A stretch of 64,000 nucleotides of DNA from Eledone cirrhosa (lineage: Eukaryota). The notes below the pieces were generated by a model that ran no database searches, was not told the DNA's origin, and saw nothing but the letters and a program-made list of their open reading frames with translations. This document shows positions 2,233 through 64,000 of this stretch, in pieces; the first letter of the stretch is position 1; each line of letters starts with the position of its first letter. The stretch covers positions 224,130,001-224,194,000 of the forward strand of contig OZ024743.1 of NCBI GenBank assembly GCA_964016885.1, given 5' to 3'. The position numbers were made by a program, and so were the translations under genes.

Positions 2233-2318
2233 ATGAAGCTGTCTGATGAGATCATGGCACTGGTTGCGCGGAATCGCGTGGCCACTGTCGTCATTGAAAT
2301 ATGTATCACAACCTTATC
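2233..2318 (+). ncRNA. Type-I hammerhead ribozyme with long stem II
   Basis: CTGATGA at 2243; stem II TGGTTGCGCG-GAAT-CGCGTGGCCA; GAAA at 2296; ATATGTAT stem III; AUC triplet; imperfect stem I. Confidence 0.75.
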
Positions 2319-2438
2319 ATAAAGGACTTTAACATCTGCAACTACTTCGCATGTTCTTATTCTAAATATACTCCGTCATTCCTATGTGGAAAAAGTACGT
2401 AGAGTGCTTGTATTGAATTGCATCAATATTTACCCAAA

Positions 2439-2490
<52 letters not shown>

Positions 2491-2541
2491 AGATATATAC
2501 AATATATTAATAAATGGAAACTATATTTATAAAACCATATT

Positions 2542-2607
2542 TATTTTATTATACATATTTCAAGGGCCACCAAGGCAAATTATGGTGCGCTTTCATTAGA
2601 TAAAATA
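2542..2607 (-). ncRNA. Hammerhead ribozyme at the 3' end (pLTR) of the Naiad-like PLE, core mutated (CUAAUGA)
   Basis: Minus strand TATTTTAT-CTAATGA-AAG..CACCA..TGGTG..CTT-GAAA-TATGTA-TA-ATAAAATA; 8-bp stem I; same sense as ORF 3917-5698. Confidence 0.7.
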
Positions 2608-3916: not shown

Positions 3917-5755
<1,839 letters not shown>

Positions 5756-14159: not shown

Positions 14160-15379
14160 ATGCCAAAATCAACATACTGATTGCGGATTTGGTACGGGTG
14201 ATGAGAAACGTGTCCCGCATATGCAACCCCAAAGAACTAGAGAGATACATACAACACTTCATCCACCGTATGCAGTTCTCTGGTTACAACCAGAGAGATA
14301 AAATCAGAGTATATAGAGGAGCCTGAACCAAATGGGAAAAAATGGTAAATAATGACACAAATGGGACTGCCCCTTGTATAGGAGCAAATTTTGGAATAGA
14401 ATAGAAAGAACTAGGAATAAGGCTAATAGAATAAACTCATGGTATGATAGCAATAAATACCAGAGTGTAATGTTCATCGATACAACCCCTAGAGGTGAAT
14501 TAGCTTACAAATTTAGAAGGGCCCTAGATAAACATAAACTCAATATTAAGATAGTAGAAAGACCAGGTACCTCCATAAAAACATTTATTAGCAATACATA
14601 CCCTTTTCAAAGACCTGCCTGTATAGATAAGAAATGTATAATCTGTAAATTAAGCCCCCATATTAACTGTAAAACTAGAAATGTAGTAGATGTACTGAAG
14701 GACAATGTAGAGATAAAAATATAGTGTACATAGGTGAGACAGCTCGTAGTATAGGGGAACGGATAAATGAACACTGGCGAGACCTTCAAGATAGTAAAGA
14801 ATCATCTGTACTCTACCAACATGCTAAAATAGAACATAAAGGTAAATTAGAGAACATAGAAATAAAAATAGAATCTACACACAGAAAAGACGCAATGTTT
14901 AGACAAATCACAGAGGCAATAAACATAAATGAACTCCAATCAAAATTAAATAGAAAACATGAATTGAACAGCAACATCACAACTTACAATTAAGGACAAA
15001 ATGAAAACACACGCACATAGAACAAACAACCAACTAGTAACATGCAAATAAACAAATAAATAAATGAATATAAACACACACAGACACCCGGATGTAACAC
15101 ATGCGCAAACTAAGCACACAACACACACACAAAACAAGATGGCGTAGGACAGAACAAAGGAGAGGCACAAAAACAAAGAAAAGAATCCCCAGTCACTGAA
15201 GAGGTCACAGAATTGTGACGAAAGAACTTTGACAATATATGAACAATCGTCTGGTTGTGGAACCAACCAACCAACCGGAAATTTATAAATTCCTAAATTT
15301 ATAAATTTATTATAATAAATTGAAGTGAAAGCAAATGGTGCGTGTGTTTCTTATTGGCAACTTGACCCTCCCAAAGTAT

Positions 15380-15385
<6 letters not shown>
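14160..15385 (+). mobile_element. Penelope-like element (Neptune/Nematis-like) 3' fragment: thumb, Cys linker, GIY-YIG, 3' pLTR
   Basis: MQFSGY, VERPG, CxxxxCxxC, YIGETARSIGERINEH, RQITEA, LNRKHE; stops and frameshifts; HHR in the 3' UTR; ends in (TA)n. Confidence 0.85.
15192..15233 (+). ncRNA. Minimal type-I hammerhead ribozyme
   Basis: GTCA-CTGAAGA-G-GTCACA GAAT TGTGAC-GAAA-GAAC-TT-TGAC. Confidence 0.85.
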
Positions 15386-15723: not shown

Positions 15724-15822
15724 CAGGGTGTCCGAAAAATGTATACACACTTCAACAGCATTCTAATAAGTATTGCCTGTACAAGTAATCAAAGTGTGTA
15801 TACATTTTGGAGGGACACCCTA
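15724..15822. mobile_element. Tc1/mariner-type MITE (~100 bp)
   Basis: TIRs CAGGGTGTCCGAAAAATGTATACACACTT / AAGTGTGTATACATTTTGGAGGGACACCCT in TA context. Confidence 0.8.
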
Positions 15823-16420
15823 TATATATATTGCAGCAGCAGAGGTTCGACGAGCTTTTACTTCCAGAGTCAGGCCAGATCGATACAGATCGAACCTTGA
15901 GCTGATCAATAGCGAAACGCGCGTCACCAATCAATAAACGTAATGAAGGCTTATCAAATCGTCTTTGTCATATTATTATATTACACTCTGTCTAGCTCTA
16001 CACTTCGCCACTGACGTGAACCTAAACATCGAGTGCTCACCATGGGTGAACCTACCATTAGCTTCACGTTACACGCCATGGATATATTCTTCCCTACATG
16101 TTTCAGTCCTGGGTGTCCTTTTAGATCATGGATCACAGGCCTCGCGCACCAGGACTGAACAAAGTCCGATTCACAGTCTTCGTTCCTATTCCCCTCTTGG
16201 ACTCAACTCACCTCCCCAATTTCTCTAATACCCCGTCCATTATCGCACCCCTAGATTCCTATCGCTTTCTCTTGATCACTAGCAGCTTCTCTTACAACTA
16301 ATACATGCCGATACACACCCTTATATTAGCATACTTTTGCTCATAGCTTCGTACTTACATGCACACACACTCTTTTACTCACGTATACACACACATTTCT
16401 TCTTAGCTTCGTACGGACCT

Positions 16421-16463
<43 letters not shown>

Positions 16464-16683
16464 ATGCTTACACACGTGCTCAAGTATAGCTCTTTTTACA
16501 AAACGGCTTTTTTTTCATTTCAGATAGACGCGCGCCATCATCCATTTTTCTAAAAATACAAAACGCCAGCACCAACAGTTTTCCAAAAGATGTCAACATG
16601 AATGGACCTGTTCTTTTTATCTAAAGACATTTTTTCCAATTCTATCCCGCCCGTCCCCTCAATCTATTTTATTTCTCATTCTT

Positions 16684-16719
16684 TCTTCTGATGAAGGACT
16701 AGCGTCCGAAACGTTAAGA
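16684..16719 (+). ncRNA. Minimal type-I hammerhead ribozyme (36 nt) within element 16590-16807
   Basis: TCTT-CTGATGA-A-GGAC TAGC GTCC-GAAA-CG-TT-AAGA; palindromic AACGTT stem III. Confidence 0.85.
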
Positions 16720-16829
16720 TCCCCTTCCTGCTATATCAAGCGTTAACCTAATATATACCTTCCATATACTGTACCGATTGTGTTGTTATTTCTGTTTACC
16801 TTTTACAAACATACATATATATAGATAGA

Positions 16830-19790: not shown

Positions 19791-20389
19791 TTTGTCTTGT
19801 ATTTTACTCCAGGATATATAAACAAGAATTCTTAAGTACTCGGTACTCCATTTGCATCAGCGAGCTATTTATGAGTGCAGTTCCATTCACCTCACTATCT
19901 GCAATTTTTTGTAGAGCAACTGCTAAATTATACAATGTAGCCACAACTTCTGACTTTCTGGGTGTATATCTAACGTTAACATGGTGGTACTGGTGGAGGC
20001 TGGATCTTTTGCCCAATATATCCTTGTCATGTCTCCATGTACTGTTCCCCCATCCACCTGTTAGATACCTTCTCTTCATCATTCATCTTCTATCCTATTC
20101 ATTGTACTATGCTATCAAAGACGGGATTGAATCTATGTGTGCCTCTCATATCTCTGACACGTGCTCTTCTATTCACAACACCATGGCGCCCATGCAATGA
20201 GGCATGGCATTAGATATGTCTGTATTCAAGCTTCACTACAACCAAACTTATTACTCCATTGCAACACTATGTATGAAGAGTTGCATCGAAGTTATTTTTT
20301 ATACTCTATATTTATATTGGCCACCAACACCTCACTCACAGACCAATAATTATTAACATCTATCAGTTTTTCTTACCATTGCTTCTCTC

Positions 20390-24300: not shown

Positions 24301-24669
24301 TTCAACTTTCCGTGACCTACCCCCAGACAAGGGGCATTATCTTATCAGTTAAGAGCGGATCAAATATTGTGTTATCCTGAAACTGAAGAAGCGGGTCTGG
24401 TTCAAATGTTCACATTCACCAATGGTTGGTGACAAAATCATCAGGCTGTATGTTGAGTAAGTTTCAAATCAGTTGGAATGGAACTGTGTCAATAAGTACG
24501 TCACAAACAGTGTGCTGAAAATATTGATGCCAAAAAATAATATTTCTACATTTGTTTGAAGGGAAGGAGAAAGTCGATTAAATCGACCCAGTGCGTTACT
24601 GGTGCTTTATTTTATCGACCCCATAAGACTGAAGGATATATTTTGTTATCCCTTATATATATAAGGGAT

Positions 24670-27967
<3,298 letters not shown>

Positions 27968-27968
27968 G

Positions 27969-28000
<32 letters not shown>

Positions 28001-28002
<2 letters not shown>

Positions 28003-28429
28003 GTGACGAAACATAAGTCAATTGCATGAACTCATAATCCTTTATTTACTGCTATATATATTTCGATGATAGCCATTGAATGGCTATGACCTCATCAGGC
28101 AGTTAGTCAGTTCTTAGATATGCCAGCTCTGTGTTTATAGTGTTGATGGTATCAGAGCCTTAGGACATATCCTATGTCCCAAGGCTCTGATACCATCAAC
28201 ACTATAAACACAGAGCTGGCATATCTAAGAACTGACTAACTGCCTGGTGAGGTCATAGCCATTCAATGGCTATCATCGAAATATATATAGCAGTAAATAA
28301 AGGATTATGAGTTCATTCATGCAATTGAATTATGTTTTGTCACTATTATAACTCCGGAACTTATATCTTCGTTGAATGCTCCCTATCCGCATACTGAAGT
28401 ACTGGATTTTACCAACACTTACTTTCTTG

Positions 28430-28430
<1 letters not shown>
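28001..28430. mobile_element. Fold-back HHR element: palindrome 28001-28345 (centre ~28171) plus unpaired tail
   Basis: Near-perfect ~170-bp arms; HHRs at 28048-28103 (-, CUGAUGA) and 28239-28294 (+, CUGGUGA); (TA)n on both sides. Confidence 0.9.
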
Positions 28431-28468
<38 letters not shown>

Positions 28469-39105: not shown

Positions 39106-39134
<29 letters not shown>

Positions 39135-39136
<2 letters not shown>

Positions 39137-39681
39137 GATAAATCTACCAAGAGTTTACGGTAGTGTCCAATCCGTATGAAGAACTCAATGTAATCCGGAT
39201 ATCATGGAAAGAAGAGATGCAATGAAAAATCACTTTCGGTGAAAGATAAACGGAATACAGAGTCAAGATAAAATATTAAAAAAATAATGAATAAAACAAT
39301 GAAACAGTTCCTTATATTAAACAAAAAAAGTTCATTATTTAACGATCGTTTCTAGGATATATATGTGTTAGAATTGGCATGCATATTCAACAGATCTATC
39401 TACAAAATTATACAAAATTATACAAACTATCAAAATTAAATATACATACCAACACATATATATGCGGTCTTCAGAAATTATTTCTGAAGACGGCATATAT
39501 ATGTGTTGGTATGTATATTTAATTTTGATAGTTTGTATAATTTTGTATAATTTTGTACATAGATCTGTTGAATATGCATGCCAATTCTAACACATATATA
39601 TCCTAGAAACGATCGTTAAATAATGAACTTTTTTTGTTTAATATAAGGAACTGTTTCATTGTTTTATTCATTATTTTTTTA

Positions 39682-39690
<9 letters not shown>
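39135..39690. mobile_element. Fold-back HHR element: palindrome 39268-39690 (centre ~39479) plus unpaired tail 39135-39267
   Basis: ~210-bp arms; plus-strand HHR ATTATTT-CTGAAGA-(115-nt stem II)-GAAA-CGATCG-TT-AAATAAT at 39477-39624, mirrored on the minus strand. Confidence 0.88.
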
Positions 39691-39759
<69 letters not shown>

Positions 39760-39994
39760 TAGAGCAAACAGATCAGAGCAAACAGCACGGACACTCTATC
39801 TCAAAATTATTTTTGAAAAGCATTTAGAAATGCGCAACTGGTAAAAACTTAAAAACTTAAAACCACAACTGAATACTAACCCATACAATCACTAATACTC
39901 TTTTATTCCTAATTAAACCATTTTTCAACTGTGAACAATTTGTCAGTATTTTCTATTCCGTTTACCAATATACATATATATATATATACATATA

Positions 39995-41524
39995 TGAGAG
40001 CTATACAAGCCATGTATAAAGAAACAGTCAGCAAGGTTAGAATTAACAACGAATATAGTGAAGAGTTTAGCGTAAAAGTTGGTGTTCATCAGGGCTCTGT
40101 TCTTAGCCCCCTACTATTTATTATTGTCCTTCAGGCTATAACAGTGGAGTTCAAGACCGGCTGCCCATGGGAACTCCTATACGCAGATGATCTAACGCTC
40201 ATAGCTGAATCAATGGCTGAGCTAGAGAAGAAATTCCAAACATGGAAGCACGGCCTAGAATCAAAAGGCCTTAAAATTAACCTGGCTAAGACTAAAGTTC
40301 TAGTTTGTAGGAAAGAAAATAAGGCGCCGGTCCCTTCCGGGAAATGGCCATGCTCAGTGTGTAGGAAAGGCGTAGGTAGAAACTCCATTTTATGTCCCAA
40401 ATGCAAAGTATGGGTGCATAAAAGATGTAGTGGGATCACAGGTAAGCTAACTAAGAACATAGATTTTACATGTGGCCGGTGCTCTGGTGCAATAAGTAGC
40501 AGCAAGTGCCCAAAAATACTAGCTCTTTCAATTGCGTAGAGGGTTCTATAGAAATAGTGGACAGCTTCCGTTACCTGGGTGACAAAATCAGCAGTGGGGG
40601 AGGGTGCTCTGAAAGTACAGTAGCTAGAGTCAGAACTGGATGGAAAAAGTTCAGAGAGCTTATACCACTATTAGCCGCTAAAGGGTTCTCCCTAAAATGA
40701 AAGGCAGGCTGTATGATGCCTGCATATGAACAGCAATGTTGCATGGCAGTGAGACCTGGGCATTGTGTGCAGAGGATATACGCAGACTAGAGAGGAACGA
40801 AGCTTGCATGCTCCGCCGGATGTGTAATAGTAATATACGCAAACGGCAAAGCATAAACAAACTAAGGGAAAAATTAGAAATAAGAGGGATCAGATGTTGT
40901 TTACTCGAGAGAAGGCTACGTTGGTATGGTCACGTGATGCGCATGAAAGACGACAGCTGTATAACAAAGTGCAAGGCAATAAAGATAGACGGTAGCCACG
41001 GAATAGGCAGACCTAGAAAATCCTGGGACGAGCTGATAAACTCCGACCTCACACACTTACACCTCTCCAAGACAATGTCACTGGACCGAGATCTTTGGCG
41101 GCACTCAGTAATAGAGAAGACCCGCCTTACCTAAATACAAAGTAAAACCTACTACAGTCAGTAGGCATCGCTAACAAAATACACCCCCGTCCCACCACCC
41201 CCACCCCATCCACACCGCCCCTTTCAATGTAAAGTTATGTTGGTGCCACAACATCCAGGCCGAAACAAATGAGATCGTGTAGGTATCACGACAAAAAACA
41301 CACAGTCCACGCTGTAATGTGGCCGTGTAGGCAACACGGTAAAAACCTCCCAGTCCCACACTGTAAATGTGGTTGGTGTTAGGAAGGGCATCCAGCTGTA
41401 GAAAACCCGCCAGACAGTCCTATGCGAGCAAGACAACCACTCTTGCCTCAAGTGGGAAAACTCCCATCCAAACCCATGCAAGCGTGGAACATGGACGTTA
41501 AACGATGATGATGATGATGATGAT
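39995..41524 (+). mobile_element. RTE LINE, 5'-truncated
   Basis: [35 protein letters not shown]; (GAT)n tail. Confidence 0.95.
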
Positions 41525-42678: not shown

Positions 42679-42754
42679 TATATATATATATATATATAAT
42701 GTATAAAGCACTCTTCACTTCTATGACCTTTTCTGTTTTCAACGGAAATTTCAA

Positions 42755-42815: not shown

Positions 42816-43463
<648 letters not shown>

Positions 43464-45292: not shown

Positions 45293-46040
45293 CATACATA
45301 TATATATATATATCCCTGTGAAGTATAATGTAAATGCCATTTTTCTTATCTCTCTCCAGCCTATCGGTCCATTCATTCATATTGTTCTAAATAATCTTCT
45401 CTCTGCTATCGGTCCATTCATTCATATATCCGTTTCATCGCCCAAAATCCAATCTTTGCTCTCTCTCAATGCTATTCTATAATTCTGTCTGGTTGTTTCT
45501 AAATAATCTTCTTGTATTTTAATGCTATTCTATTATTCTGTCTGGTTGTTTCTAAATAATCTTCTTGTATTTTAAAACCCCATTATTCGCTTATTATTAC
45601 TGTTATATGCTTCCCCAATTATGCCCAAAATTCGAAGATTTCATTTAAAACCTCTCGCTAACTACCCCATTTGTTTTTCTAAAATAACAATCTTGTTTGT
45701 TTAAATTTAGCCGAAAAAAAAAAAAAAAAATTCTAGAATTTATAAAATGGCCTCATTGTCCCTCTTATCCTTTACCCCCCCCCCCCCCCCCCCCACTATA
45801 TCGTATTACGCGCCAGCTAGTTCACCCTCAGTTCACCCTTTCAATCACTCCCTTCTCTCACCAAATATAAATAATCTTCTCTCTGCTAACTACCCCATAT
45901 CCCTCCCTCCCGCCCCCACTCTCCACCTTATTATTTGGACCAATCACAAGTCAACGGCCTATGCTATCACTTCTGGCTGCTTTTCGATATGATGGATGGA
46001 CTAAGGAATTTCTGGAGAGTCTGAAGAATCTGGACACTCA

Positions 46041-49000
46041 ATGACAATGCCAAAGATAACAACAAATTCACCTCATGCTGCTGGACGAAAGGGCAAAGCC
46101 CCCTCCTCTTTGTTTCGGCCGCGGATGGCCAACATAACCCCAACCCCATCCCCCTCACCCCTCCCTGCGCCCCATCCTCCAAACACAATCCAAAACTTCA
46201 GAGTTGGTACCATGAATGTAGGCACCTTAAAAGGCCGCTCTAACGAGGTTGTAGAAATGCTTGAACGTAAGGAGGTTGATGTTTGCTGTATCCAAGAGAC
46301 CAGGTGGAGGGGCGGGTCTGCTAGATTCATTGTGGGTAAAAAACGTTGCTATAAGCTTTTCTGGGTGGGAAATGACAATGGGATCGGCGGGGTAGGAATC
46401 ATGTTAGCAGAAAAATGGGTGGATAAGATAATAGATGTAAATAGAGTAAATGACAGAATAATTAAAATAAGACTTGTTCTAAATAGAACTACTGTGACAG
46501 TAATATCGGCATACGAGCCCCAATCCGGACTGCCTGGCGCTATAAAAAACAAATTCTATGAGACACTGATGCTCACTACCTCCCAAATAACCGACAGTGA
46601 CTATATAATTATTGCTGGCGACCTAAATGGCCACGTTGGACAACATTGTGACGGCTATGATGGAATCCACGAAGGCTATGGGTTCGGTACTAGAAACGAG
46701 GAAGGCTCCAGAATCCTGGAATTCTGTGATGCAAATAACCTAACTATCTGTAACACAAACTTCAAAAAACGAGACAATCACTTGATCACCTACAGATCAG
46801 GGGAACCTACCAGCCAGGTAGATTATATCCTTACCAGAAGACGTGACAGAGTGTCTGTTGTAAACACTAAATCCCTCCCCCATGAAGAATGCACCTCCCA
46901 ACATAGACTGATAATTAGCGACCTCATAGTCAGAACGAGACGTACTAGACAGCAGAAGAGGACTATCCTCAGGAGAAAAATATGGAAGCTAAAGGACCCT
47001 ACAGCCAGAAATAAATTTAAAAGCATATTACTTGATGCTTTCGACAGTAAAGAAGAGCAATTAGAGTCGTACAATATAGAGGAACAGTGGGAATTCCTGA
47101 AAGCAAACCTGCTGGTGGCAGCAGACGAAGTCTGTGGCTGGAGCAGGCCTGTAGGCAGGAGGAGAGTAACATGGTGGTGGAACAGTAAGGTGGAGGAGTC
47201 AATCAACACCAAAAAGCAGGCTTGGAAAGTATGGCGGGATGGGGTAAGTAGAGAAGACTATCAAGTGGCTAGGAGACAAGTGTACTTCGCAAGAAGGGAA
47301 TCAGAGGAAAGAAAGTTCAAGCATGTTCTACAACGCGAGGACCAAAAACGTGAGGTGTTCAGGATTGCTAGGCAATGTGTCAAGGAAAACCGTGATATTG
47401 TCGGGGAGAAGTGTGTACTTAATGATGATGGCGTACTTGCCATCACTGACGCTGATAAGAAGGTAGCTTGGAAGTGTCACTACGAAAGGCTACTAAATGA
47501 GGAGAATAAATGGGAGAAAGACAGTCTCCCCCACATTGACCCAATAAAGGGACCAGCAGTGTTAGTCGAAGGTAGTATAATAAGTAAGGCAATCAAAGAT
47601 ATGAAGACGGGTAAGGCGGCTGGGCCTTCGGAAATAGTTGCTGAGATGCTGAAAGCCTCTGGAACGGTGGGACACACCATGGTCACCTGGATAGTAAACC
47701 AAGTCATATAGAATGGGGTTGTTCCGAAGGACTGGCGTAGCAGCAGCATCATTAACTGCTACAAGGGTAAAGGAGACGCCCTAGATAGGAGTAACTATAG
47801 AGGCATTAAATTAATCGACCAGGTCATGAAGGTCATGGAAAAAGTAATAGCGCAACTAATCAGAGAGAGAATTGATCTAGATGAAATGCAGACGCTCTTT
47901 TCATTGTACGACAACTACAGGAGAAGTACCTAGCTAAAAGTAAACCTCTATACTTAGCTTTTGTCGATTTGGAGAAAGCCTTCGACAGAGTTCCCCGTTC
48001 CATTATCTGGTGGGCTCTTAGAAAACTAGGTGTTGATGAATGGCTTGTGAGAGCTATACAAGCCATGTATAAAGAAACAGTCAGCAAGGTTAGAATTAAC
48101 AACGAATATAGTGAAGAGTTTAGCGTAAAAGTTGGTGTTCATCAGGGCTCTGTTCTTAGCCCCCTACTATTTATTATTGCCCTTCAGTCTATAACAGTGG
48201 AGTTCAAGACTGGCTGCCCATGGGAACTCCTATACGCAGATGATCTAACGCTCATAGCTGAATCAATGGCCGAGCTAGAGAAGAAATTCCAAACATGGAA
48301 GCACGGCCTAGAATCAAAAGGCCTTAAAATTAACCTGGCTAAGACTAAAGTTCTAGTTTGTAGGAAAGAAAATAAGGCGCCGGTCCCTTCCGGGAAATGG
48401 CCATGCTCAGTGTGTAGGAAAGGCGTAGGTAGAAACTCCATTTTATGTCCCAAATGCAAAGTATGGGTGCATAAAAGATGTAGTGGGATCACAGGTAAGC
48501 TAACTAAGAACATAGATTTTACATGTGGCCGGTGCTCTGGTGCAATAAGTAGCAGCAAGTGCCCATAAAATACTAGCTCTTTCAATTGCGCAGAGGGCTC
48601 TATAGAAATAGTGGACAGCTTCTGTTACCTAGGTGACAAAATCAGCAGTGGGGGAGGGTGCTCTGAAAGTACAGTAGCTAGAGTCAGAACTGGATGGAAA
48701 AAGTTCAGAGAGCTTATACCACTATTAGCCGCTAAAGGGTTCTCCCTAAAATGAAAGGCAGGCTGTATGATGCCTGCATACGAACAGCAATGTTGCATGG
48801 CAGTGAGACTTGGGTATTGTATACAGAGGATATACGCAGACTAGAGAGGAACGAAGCTTGCATGCTCCGCTGGATGTGTAATAGTAATATACGCGAACGG
48901 CAAAGCATAAACGAACTAAGGGTAAAATTAGAAATAAGAGGGATCAGATGTTGTTTACTCGAGAGAAGGCTACGTTGGTATGGTCACGTGATGCGCATGA

Positions 49001-53586: not shown

Positions 53587-54375
53587 ATACATACGTATAC
53601 ATATATATATATACATACATATACATATATATACATACATACATATATATATATACATACATACATATACATATATATACATATATATACATATATATAT
53701 ATATACATACATATACATATATATACATATATATACATTCATACATACATATACATATATATACATATATATACATTCATACATACATATACATATATAT
53801 ACATATATATATATATACACATATATACATTCACATATATATACATATATATATACATATATACATATACATATATACATACACATATATATATACATAT
53901 ATACATACACACATATATACATATATACATAAACATATATATATACATATATACATACACATATATATACATGGAGGCACATGGCTTAGTGGTTAGAGCA
54001 TTGGGCTTGCAATCGAAAGGTTGTGAGTTCAATTCTCAGACCGGGTGATGTGTTGTTTCCTTGTGCAAGAGACTTTATTTCACATTGCTCCAGTTTACTC
54101 AGCTGTAGAAATGAGATGATAGGGACTGGGGTCCATATCATTCCACTGTAAAGAGGTCGTAGAGGTGCCACGGCAAAAAAAAAAAGCACCCAGCACTCAC
54201 TGTAAATGAGGTTGGTGTTAGGAAGGGCATCCAGCTGTAGAAATCAAGCCAGAATCAGTTCCCGTCCCACCCTTGCAAGCAGGGAAAAGCGGACGAAAAT
54301 GAAATGATGATGATGATGATGATACATACACATATATATATATACATATATATATATACATATATATATATATAC

Positions 54376-57803: not shown

Positions 57804-57916
<113 letters not shown>

Positions 57917-58115
57917 GCAAAAGTTCTATTTAAATTGTTGGGATACAACAACCAAATATTTTTATAACTGATATAAAGCACTCAACTAGTATTTGGAGTA
58001 AACATACGATACTAACAAATGGAAACTATATTTATAAAAGCATATTTATTTCATTATTTCAAGGGCACCAAGTTATGTATAATGAAATAATAAATATGGT
58101 TTTATAAATTGTTAA
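57917..58115 (-). mobile_element. pLTR tail of the 2500-2607 family, partly folded back; second copy at 63886-64000
   Basis: AAATGGAAACTATATTTATAAAA..CATATTTATTT..TTTCAAGGG shared with 2512-2570. Confidence 0.7.
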
Positions 58116-58117
58116 TA

Positions 58118-58188
<71 letters not shown>

Positions 58189-60076: not shown

Positions 60077-61574
60077 AGGTTAGAATTAACAACGAATATA
60101 GTGAAGAGTTTAGCGTAAAAGTTGGCGTCCATCAGGGCTCTGTTCTCAGCCCACTACTATTTATTATTGCCCTTCAGGCTATAACAGAGGAGTTCAAGAC
60201 AGGCTGCCCATGGGAACTCCTATACGCAGACGACCTGACACTCATAGCGGAATCAATGGCCGAGCTAGAGAAGAAATTCCAAACATGGAAGCACGGCCTA
60301 GAGTCAAAAGGACTTAAAATTAACCTGGCTAAGACCAAAGTACTAGTTTGTAGGAAAGAAAACAAGGCGGCGGTCCCTTCTGGGAAATGGTCGTGCTCGG
60401 TGTGTAGGAAAGGCGTAGGTAGAAACTCCATTTTATGTCCTAAATGCAAAGTATGGGTGCATAAAAGATGTAGTGGGATCACAGGTAAGCTAACTAAGAA
60501 CATAGATTTTACATGTGGCCGGTGCTCTGGTGCAATAAGTAGCAGCAAGTGCCCACAAGCTACTAGCTCTTTCAATTGCGCAGAGGGTTCTATAGAAATA
60601 GTGGACAGCTTCCGTTACCTGGGCGATAAAATCAGCAGTGGGGGAGGGTGCTCTGAAAGTACTGTAGCTAGAGTCAGAACTGGTTGGAAAAAGTTCAGAG
60701 AGCTTATACCACTATTAGCTGCTAAAGGGTTCTCACTGAAAATGAAAGGCAGGTTGTACGATGCCTGCATACGAACAGCAATGCTGCATGGCAGTGAGAC
60801 CTGGGCATTGTGTGCAGAGGATATACGCAGACTAGAGAGGAACGAAGCTTGCATGCTCCGCTGGATGTGTAACAGTAATATACGTGAACGGCAAAGCATA
60901 AACGAACTAAGGAAAAAATTAGAGATAAGAGGGATCAGATGTTGTTTACTCGAGAGAAGGCTACGTTGGTATGGACACGTGATGCGCATGAAAGTCGATA
61001 GCTGTATAACAAAGTGCAGGGCAATAAAGATAGACGGTAGTCACGGAATAGGCAGACCTAGAAAAACCTGGGACGAGCTGATAAACTCCGACATCACACA
61101 CTTACACCTCTCCAAGACAATGTCACTGGACCGTGACCTTTGGCGGTACCCAGTAACAGAGAAGACCCGCCTTACCTAAATATATAGTAAAACCTACTCC
61201 AGCCAGTAGGCATCCCTAACAAAATACACCCCGTCCCACCACCCCCACCCCTACCCCATCCACACCACCCCGTTCTATGTAAAGTTATGTTGGTGCCGCG
61301 CCATCGAGGCCGAAACAAATGAGATCGTGTAGGTGTCACGACAAAAAAACACACAGTCCACGCTGTAATGTGGCCGTGTAGGCAACACGGTAAAAACCTC
61401 CCAGACCCACACTGTAAATGTGGTTGGTGTTAGGAAGGGCATCCAACTGTAGAAAACCTGCCAGACAGTCCTATGCGAGCAAGACAATCACTCTTGCCTC
61501 AAGTGGGACTACCCCCGTCCAAACCCATGCAAGCGTGGAACACGGACGTTAAACGTTGATGATGATGATGATGA
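60077..61574 (+). mobile_element. RTE LINE, 5'-truncated, uninterrupted C-terminal ORF (to 61179)
   Basis: 307-aa ORF with PHD-like finger and LRWYGHVMR; (GAT)n tail. Confidence 0.96.
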
Positions 61575-61777: not shown

Positions 61778-62286
61778 TAAAATAAAGTTAAATAAAAGTC
61801 AAATGATTAAAATTTAGCTTTGTTTATTACTGCTATATATATTTCAGTGACAGCCATCTTTGGCTGTGACCTCTTCAGGCAGTTTGAATTAGTATGGTAT
61901 AGACAAGTACATATGTTGTTTAGGTGTATGATATTGTCAAATACTGGGGAACTGGAGTCATATGGATATGACTCCAGTTCCCCAGTGAATTAACAACCCA
62001 GCAAGGAACTGGGCATATCAGAGTATTGACAATATCATACACCTAAACAACATATGTACTTGTCTATACCATACTAATTCAAACTGCCTGAAGAGGTCAC
62101 AGCCAAAGATGGCTGTCACTGAAATATATATAGCAGTAATAAACAAAGCTAAATTTTAATCATTTGACTTTTATTTAACTTTATTTTACACTACTCCGGA
62201 GTAACCAAACCAACCTGCGCACTTCGTCGAGTGCTCCAGCCTGCATACTGAGGTGTTGGTATACAACCAACATAAACTCAAAATCT
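61778..62286. mobile_element. Fold-back HHR element: palindrome 61778-62188 plus tail
   Basis: Identical HHRs at 61829-61883 (-) and 62083-62137 (+): ACTGC-CTGAAGA-GGTCACAGCCA AAGA TGGCTGTCACT-GAAA-TATATA-TA-GCAGT. Confidence 0.92.
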
Positions 62287-62708
62287 ATATACTTATATAT
62301 ATATATACTTATATATGTATATATATATACACATATATATACATATATACTTATATATACTTATAAATATATACTTATATATATGGAGGCACATGGTTTA
62401 GTGGTTAGAGCATTGGCCTTGCAATCGAAAGGTTGTGAGTTCAATTCTCAGACCATGTGATGTGTTGTTTCCTTGAGCAAGACACTTTATTTCACATTGC
62501 TCCAGTTTACTCAGCTGTAGAAATGAGATGATAGGGACCCCAGTCCCTATCATTCCACTGCAAAGTGGTTGTGTAGGTGCCACGGATGTAAATGAGGTTG
62601 GTGTTAGGAAGGGCATCCAGCTGTAGAAATCAAGCCAGAATCAGTTCCCGTCCCACCCTTGCAAGCAAGGAAAAGCGGATGTAAAATGATGATGATGATG
62701 ATGATGAT

Positions 62709-63834: not shown

Positions 63835-64000
63835 CTTATATATATTTATATATACATATATATATTTATATATATATACTTATATGCAAAAGTTCTATTT
63901 AAATTGTTGGGATACAACAAGTAAATATTTTTATAACTGATATAAAGCACTCAACAAGTATTTGGAGTAGATATACGATATTAATAAATGGAAACTATAT

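Follow-up and report, generated by a model that had tools for sequence, protein, structure and literature searches.

A twin bulged hairpin close to the copy ends of Hydra-clade Penelope-like elements and related hammerhead repeats

Described systems closest to the hairpin elements

RNA stems that the reverse transcriptase recognises and that fix where copying begins or stops are known from the 3' stem-loops shared by SINEs and LINEs and from the telomerase template boundary element. The LINE and SINE stems are copied into the new insertion, with priming at the RNA 3' end, and the telomerase element delimits where synthesis ends rather than where it begins. The signal described here for Hydra-type elements differs from the LINE and SINE stems in lying outside the copied part.

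Among Penelope-like elements (PLEs), the Hydra clade, the hammerhead ribozymes (HHRs) in the pLTRs, the tail and internal initiation are already published. As far as the accessible part of PMC8557442 goes, the Hydra clade comprises C-terminal EN+ PLEs that have RWK, DKT and CxCX5C motifs, a C-terminal GIY-YIG domain, an HHR and insertion at (TA)n, and its description mentions neither the hairpin reported here nor its duplication or distance to the copy ends. By eye, we observed the hairpin in the consensus sequences of Hydra-2_Amil and Hydra-2_Ajap printed there, twice in Hydra-1_Ajap, and in mismatched versions in Hydra-1_Crog and Hydra-1_Obim; the Hydra-1_Amil consensus, read against one of our loci (L078), stops 4 nt before it. 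Six 9-mers of the hairpin's 3' word occur seven times in the 584,176-character supplement of that paper, a count that misses words split across lines. Four occurrences are in Hydra consensus sequences and three in apparently coding interiors of other elements, and none was found near an end of the Naiad or Chlamys PLEs in the supplement.

In Poseidon_Ac (PAc), according to the accessible text of PMC11167929, the reverse transcriptase (RT) is a predicted dimer that starts internally at two sites bracketing the tail, and needs RNA to +172 for starts at +111-118. The AT-rich target, the extension of both strands and the requirement for RNA 3' of the start resemble the Hydra-type case. However, the PAc starts lie in an AC-rich stem loop of its ORF and its tail measures 30-40 nt, whereas the Hydra-type ends described here fall a few nucleotides 5' to a hairpin that is conserved, duplicated and located in the 5' UTR. 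Since the PAc start lies inside the AC-rich loop and its template, inspected by eye as given there, has no RCUC/GAGY-RCU motif, the precedent is one of analogy only. A CUC/GAG pairing with a 2-nt bulge can be seen by eye downstream of the PAc start, but it was disregarded because the sequence there more likely folds as a local UACG tetraloop hairpin.

Non-LTR retrozymes are likewise short, non-coding units with type I HHRs that are related to pLTRs and presumably rely on enzymes borrowed from PLEs; the accounts of them, in the portions available, give no recognition signal (PMC7229834; bioRxiv 10.64898/2026.07.22.740005). They form head-to-tail tandems, whereas the copies in the window, the 64-kb stretch of DNA analysed here, are head-to-head or single. 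How a start is chosen inside a Penelope-like RT RNA and why the tail is one-sided are open questions for these RTs, which are sister to telomerase (accessible parts of PMC8557442 and PMC11167929). Our search, which covered the open literature and Rfam, returned no description of a twin hairpin. Judged by sequence comparison, the hairpin is conserved and clade-specific, and its position is tied precisely to both ends of the elements.

The focal element and other hairpins of the window

The features of the focal 62k element and of its relatives in the window are collected in Table 1.

Table 1. Features of the focal element and of other hairpin-bearing elements in the window
Feature	Positions	Strand	Remarks
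Focal bulged hairpin, hairpin 1 type	62193-62235	+	ACUC/GAGU, UC bulge, 6-pair upper stem CGGAGU/ACUUCG, AC-rich loop, 3' GCU
Tail, long arm only	62189-62285	+	97 nt, holds the motif, ends at TA run
Type I hammerhead motif, long arm	62083-62137	+	predicted cut after 62132
Mirror hammerhead motif, short arm	61829-61883	-	
Head-to-head palindrome, TA-rich site	61778-62188	.	short arm stops 4 nt before hairpin position
5' stem-loop at palindrome centre	61964-62020	+	GAUAUG/CAUAUC closing, z -3.0; similar in 28k sister family
Sister-family palindrome with tail	27995-28431	+	hairpin 28351-28380, one lower-stem mismatch; long-arm core CUGGUGA
Hammerhead element	2235-2439	+	hairpin 2370-2408, long end at TA run
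Short palindromic copy, 2.5k/64k family	57913-58120	-	hairpin 57999-57977 and tail
Long-end copy, 2.5k/58k family	63883-64000	-	hairpin 63968-63946; cut by window edge
Hammerhead element	24749-25055	-	long-loop hairpin 24824-24749, CAAGA/UCUUG upper stem, 3' CAA
Short-end copy of 24824 family	27421-27642	+	stops 1 nt before hairpin position
Palindromic hammerhead element	39134-39690	-	hairpin 39263-39180, 3' UCU; short arm stops 4 nt before
Probable further hairpin	15985-16037	+	about 59 nt behind decayed hammerhead-like core
5'-truncated Hydra-clade-like RT/GIY-YIG ORF	3917-5623	-	starts at TA run
Probable 3' end of RT/GIY-YIG ORF element	2504-2607	-	hammerhead 2607-2542, short end 2504

The long-arm motif of the focal element has the CUGANGA/GAAA core, stems I and II and the NUH site of a type I HHR; Rfam did not report it as a hammerhead at the gathering score. 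No RT/GIY-YIG ORF was found in the 508-nt focal unit, a coding parent for the 62k family was likewise not found, and no RNA data set is listed as carrying the element. Nor did we see the head-to-tail tandem units with two same-direction HHRs of non-LTR retrozymes, the focal copies in the window being head-to-head. From its HHR type, hairpin and end geometry the focal element probably belongs to a Hydra-clade PLE, with 62193-62235 as the likely hairpin-1 copy inside the tail, in the ACUC/GAGU-GCU form of this genome. Both ends of the family are found in public reads: 82 molecules end at 62284 at a depth of 219 (run X22), with loose read ends at 62291 that are TA runs, and in a contig from run X4 the element stops at 62188 and gives way to TA. 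RAD-seq ends peak at 62076-62079 and at 62155; we disregarded these peaks, which are probably artefacts of the library.

The two sister palindromes turn at a central GGATATG (61964-62020 and about 28110-28172), which can close a 5' stem-loop with CATATC. Both arms start at this centre, which points to a fixed 5' end of the RNA some 120-170 nt above the HHR cut. At 61943-62023 the short arm lacks about 38 nt of the long arm, located between short AGT repeats, which removes part of the 5' stem-loop. A tRNA-derived SINE head (62385-62450) lies directly behind the focal tail.

The original prediction described a conserved ACTCC...GAGTGCT motif in the unpaired tails of unrelated HHR families. In the form ACTCC...GTNGARTGCT we recovered it at 2370-2408, 28351-28380 and 62193-62235 on the plus strand and at 57999-57977 and 63968-63946 on the minus strand. 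These five strict matches compare with a mean of 0.005 and a maximum of 1 in 200 dinucleotide shuffles of 2-kb blocks, a significance that is overstated because the pattern was picked after the matches had been seen. A fairer test scored the window with a model for which 74 metagenome hairpins, all of them outside the window, were the sole training set. The score is a custom one, chosen because MAFFT misaligned the variable loops. The top four positions in the window were 63968, 62193, 2370 and 15985, with four at 16 bits or more against 0.4 in 30 shuffles. The hairpins at 39263 and 57999 ranked sixth and seventh, among chance-level matches, 28351 was 14th, and 24824 was absent among the 24 matches listed. 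A candidate at 19917 on the minus strand scored 14.4 bits, with no HHR seen.

In six family groups the motif lies 55-77 nt behind the HHR cut site, counted from the sequence, within the 50-100 nt expected of it. Short arms also stop just before ACTC as anticipated, by 4 nt at 62188 and at 28346 and by 1 nt at 27642, the last read against the long copy of its family at 24824 on the minus strand. Two listed variants fared less well. At 39178-39201 only the 3' half of a hairpin had been seen, the 5' half being the ACTC at 39263 on the minus strand, across a long upper part, and at 42705-42750 GAGTGCT is present with neither a pairing ACTC nor an adjoining HHR core, so that this variant is unsupported. 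To call the families unrelated was too strong: the 62k and 28k families align at 83% over 64 nt, and the 58k, 64k and 2.5k copies are one family, which leaves six mutually unalignable groups. The description of the tails as unpaired does not hold either, in that the tail is not unstructured and the motif can form a bulged hairpin. The 2-nt bulge, the upper stem, the Hydra-clade link and the second hairpin copy that marks the long end had not been described, and the hairpins at 24824-24749 (minus strand, CAA in place of RCU) and 15985-16037 (plus strand) had not been listed. A candidate hairpin at 24690-24714 was weak, with an AAUC mismatch.

Within the 64-kb window no RCUC/GAGY-RCU hairpin was found behind the HHR-like families at 15196/18655, 16688/10769, 51121 and 35855. 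In the first of these (15191-15385, plus strand, and 18655-18459, minus strand) the copies sit in TA runs with a full tail and may use another signal; in the second (16588-16807, plus strand, and 10869-10651, minus strand) both copies end at the same base, and may be short ends or belong to another PLE clade. Other repeats in the window include a short element at 15724-15822 that is flanked by TA runs, has inverted ends of the CAGGGTGTCC type and resembles a Tc1/mariner-type MITE, LINE pieces with an RT followed by a PHD finger (46005-48568, 60079-61179 and 39913-40539) and tRNA-derived SINE heads (53982-54039 and 43210-43267).

The window also contains a truncated RT/GIY-YIG ORF. It has RT-like motifs, then YVG..FK.R..NH and C.LC..E, and was aligned with 30 of 59 homologs. 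A C-terminal GIY-YIG follows the RT, and the CxCX5C linker is present as CNCRNKSNC; RWK and DKT occur in the homologs' consensus, in a region that the ORF has lost by 5' truncation. No CCHH motif was evident by eye in the endonuclease, in an alignment that included no CCHH-bearing PLE, and Pfam gave no match for the ORF. Several of the Hydra-like RT proteins (P0041, P0057 and P0059) bear unrelated database names such as inositol kinase or GATA zinc finger. The element has an HHR in its 3' region, which is unusually long at 1.3 kb, and TA runs at both ends, as expected of (TA)n insertion. Its hammerhead at 2607-2542 has one core change, at 2597, and most reads restore the core; its short end at 2504 lies 9 nt before the hairpin position of its family, and 13123 loose read ends at 2512 run on into the hairpin. 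Reads cover all 30 bins between the ORF and this 3' end, with a depth that drops steeply away from the 3' end. No single listed read or contig spans the ORF to 2504, and therefore the link between ORF and hairpin is only probable: the ORF probably belongs to the element that ends at 2504, in the hairpin family.

Hairpin structure and layout in coding elements

On its sequence, the motif is a small bulged hairpin, consisting of an RCUC/GAGY lower stem, a 2-nt bulge with U first, a covarying upper stem and a 3' RCU. The upper stem differs between families of the window (CGGAGU/ACUUCG, CGU/ACG, CAA/UUG, CAAGA/UCUUG and UGUA/UACA) and has six pairs in the focal hairpin. Among 93 distinct candidates, collected with no demand for pairing, pairs 5-7 formed in 95, 76 and 75%, against 69, 42 and 40% after shuffling, and 0 of 5000 shuffles, which ignore the relatedness of the candidates, reached these values; pair 8 is not paired. 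The excess was kept in 50 dereplicated candidates and fell when the partners were slid. A compensatory GCAC/GUGC occurs in L080 and L081. Counts of G-U against A-C (3 against 1) can neither separate RNA from DNA nor fix the strand. Rfam gave no hairpin match in the window at the gathering score or at the hairpins of four loci at E<=1.

Predicted folding varies among the copies. The lower stem was in the minimum free energy (MFE) fold of 49 of 74 metagenome hairpins, and the hairpin at 24824 was also present in its MFE fold. Unaided, the lower stem had a probability of 0.82-0.89 at 63968, 39263 and 15985, 0.39 at 57999, 0.02 at 2370, 0.01 at 62193 and 0.00 at 28351. At 62193 the constrained fold reached -15.4 kcal/mol against an unaided MFE of -17.2, so that the hairpin costs 1.8 kcal/mol. 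The focal copy is not predicted to fold as a hairpin unaided and therefore would need protein or context.

Coding relatives allowed the position of the hairpin to be assessed in 97 loci retrieved by protein alignment alone, with no use of the hairpin for selection. Of these, 78 are metagenome loci, from the best 80 of at least 270 confirmed, and 19 are contigs filed as prokaryotic (L079-L097) that carry animal-type Hydra elements and are most likely host DNA; viral contigs searched with the RT motif pattern and with an alignment gave no match. There were 74 ORF ends. Setting aside 23 (those with no HHR, plus L007) left 51 with an HHR, and removing 12 more with fewer than 130 nt after it left 39. 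A hairpin was found in 25 of the 39, eight met a TA-type repeat first and six had none, one of the six being a compensatory variant. By comparison, shuffles gave a mean of 0.13 and a maximum of 2, and windows upstream of the ORF end gave 2 in 183.

Of 46 ORF starts, 30 are preceded by a hairpin at a distance of 12-55 nt. Where the sequence reaches far enough, in 25 cases, 19 show a second hairpin another 55-83 nt upstream, and an HHR lies above both in 23 of 32. These counts use a descriptor relaxed to at least one upper-stem pair; the strict form, with at least two, gives 18 of 39 ORF ends and 22 of 46 starts. Five regions score on the reverse strand too, reflecting neighbouring inverted elements or a near-palindromic word. 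The order in these Hydra-type elements of aquatic animals, as read from the sequences, is HHR, hairpin 1, hairpin 2, ATG. The first pair is G-C in 71 of the 76 hairpins of these loci, and their usual form is GCUC/GAGC-ACU, against ACUC/GAGU-GCU, with A-U in place of G-C, in the window. Window tails measure about 70-135 nt, against 55-83 nt in the related Hydra-type elements, and hairpin 2, although predicted by the twin-hairpin model, was not visible for any family of the 64-kb window. Upstream of the ORF start, L024 and L052 have divergent twin hairpins with the 3' words GAGAACT and GAGATCT, which suggest signal variants of a sub-clade.

Copy ends and the start of copying

We observed that 22 of 30 copy ends, from 16 families, fall 2-9 nt before a hairpin, 12 before hairpin 1 and 10 before hairpin 2, and that the latter copies keep hairpin 1. 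The number expected is 2.8 for uniform placement and 6.8 for TA sites only, and none of 200,000 simulations reached 22; the simulation treats as independent ends that were hand-picked, one per terminating copy, from 56 junction rows, many of them from L083-L096. The 26 rows that were dropped repeated a terminating copy, were junctions at a palindrome centre or of the 5' kind, matched another family in the HHR only, or had neither copy continuing. Eight ends do not fit (offsets 12, 13, 13, 20, 41, 70, 98 and -15), of which the first three are apparently near ends obscured by mismatches. The six ends in the window have offsets of 4, 4, 4, 1, 9 and 9: the palindrome short arms of the 62k, 28k, 39k and 58k elements stop 4, 4, 4 and 9 nt before ACTC, and the separate copies ending at 27642 and 2504 stop 1 and 9 nt before.

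The two kinds of end are paired in head-to-head copies. Nine of ten such pairs join a short and a long arm, namely all four window palindromes and five of six Hydra-type pairs in the loci, the exception being a short and short pair in L085. A seventh loci pair (L085 6320/7417) was left out, with no motif on either arm and from another family. The inverted pLTR with a one-sided tail that typifies EN+ PLEs is found in all four window palindromes (27995-28431, 39690-39134 and 58120-57913, besides the focal one). An antisense self-priming model for head-to-head palindromes is in print (accessible part of PMC3846280).

The layout, the upper-stem covariation, the copy ends just before either hairpin and the short/long asymmetry can all be seen in the sequences, and they are consistent with the twin Hydra-clade hairpin being an RNA signal that positions the RT to start copying 2-9 nt upstream, which we regard as likely, if well short of certain. 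The RT/GIY-YIG protein would bind the hairpin through the constant RCUC/GAGY stem, the UH bulge and the RCU, while the nicked end of a (TA)n target would pair with the UA-rich tract that adjoins the hairpin on its 5' side. Two nicked strands would be primed, one at hairpin 1 and the other at hairpin 2, possibly by a protein dimer. Copying would run away from the hairpin and leave the starting hairpin itself uncopied, so that starting at hairpin 1 would produce a short, hairpin-free arm, and starting at hairpin 2 a long arm in which hairpin 1 is retained. The Penelope tail would then be the interval between the two starts, and to regain both hairpins a copy would have to be made through a template that is tandem or circular, a step that agrees with a circular-RNA proposal (PMC4209133, as far as accessible).

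It is possible, although we consider it unlikely, that the hairpin acts in DNA instead, with the GIY-YIG endonuclease recognising a cDNA or genomic copy and cutting 2-9 nt upstream. The tail has been ascribed to endonuclease resolution by Craig et al. (available part of PMC8557442), and, by the summary in the accessible text of PMC11167929, DNA recognition by the endonuclease of D. virilis Penelope depended on the tail. Cutting would also fit some 5' boundaries or TA runs that occur at this position (L007, L048 and L086), and the strand test of G-U against A-C is uninformative here. Against this, the PAc ends were reproduced in vitro as RT start sites, going by the same part of PMC11167929, and the ends are identical in copies that lie inside plain TA runs with no hairpin; the cut would therefore have to be made on an intermediate.

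Somewhat less probable again is that pairing between the nicked TA target and UA-rich RNA tracts alone determines the ends, the hairpins having another role such as translation control, packaging or ribozyme folding. Indeed, 19 of the 30 ends follow a TA/AT site and hairpin 2 sits close to the start codon, and PAc ribozyme cleavage needs protein (accessible text of PMC11167929). However, only 10-39% of the TA sites per region adjoin a hairpin, the excess of near-hairpin ends stands when TA sites alone are considered, and no read end is listed at the perfect TATATATA that the 62k ribozyme contains.

The original prediction of a shared cis signal with an ACTC/GAGT stem at the element boundary stands in so far as the stem covaries and copy ends lie 2-9 nt before it. 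Its promoter or transcription start option is weak because it is 3' ends in the ribozyme sense, and not 5' ends, that cluster at the motif. An internal promoter or start element that defines the 5' boundary seems very improbable. The Penelope pLTR does have an internal promoter, and its 34-bp repeat was scored as a promoter computationally, but this repeat is not needed for normal transcription (PMC2377424); base-pair covariation is unexpected in a double-stranded promoter, and at most ORF starts the HHR lies further upstream. A few 5' boundaries, or an expanded TA run, do occur at, near or just before hairpins (L086 about 2880, L048 about 150, L028 about 2850 and L019 about 625; also L007 about 450-470). 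These are unexplained by the initiation model alone, and possibly reflect RT stops at hairpins or insertion into the element's own UA tract. A functionless leftover of neutral shared ancestry or chance, to which the post hoc search pattern and the decay of some window copies (28351 and 57999) might point, is the least probable reading and already largely refuted by compensatory changes, the fixed distance to copy ends and persistence of the motif across unalignable flanks and proteins only 36-49% identical.

Returning to the hairpin as an RNA start signal, a broader form of the idea would make it a portable, sequence-specific, duplicated signal for a dimeric RT/endonuclease that takes one strand per hairpin and uses a telomerase-like UA alignment tract; we hold this to be a serious possibility, falling a little short of an even chance. 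If true, it would explain the one-sided tail, the head-to-head palindromes and the need for a tandem or circular template, as well as how many non-coding hammerhead families are mobilised, and a portable hairpin would be a compact handle for programming target-primed insertion. The motif, of 20-45 nt, predicts both element ends within a few bases and is open to a direct mutational test. It could also serve to assign non-coding hammerhead repeats to the clade that mobilises them.

Two arrangements of neighbouring copies were also observed. Hairpin-family elements of two kinds point tail to tail into one TA run at 2439-2504, as also happens in L005 and L086. At 24638-24760, lying tail to tail with the 24824 element, there is a 42-nt palindrome and, after it, a weak form of the motif, AATCC...GTGAGTACT.
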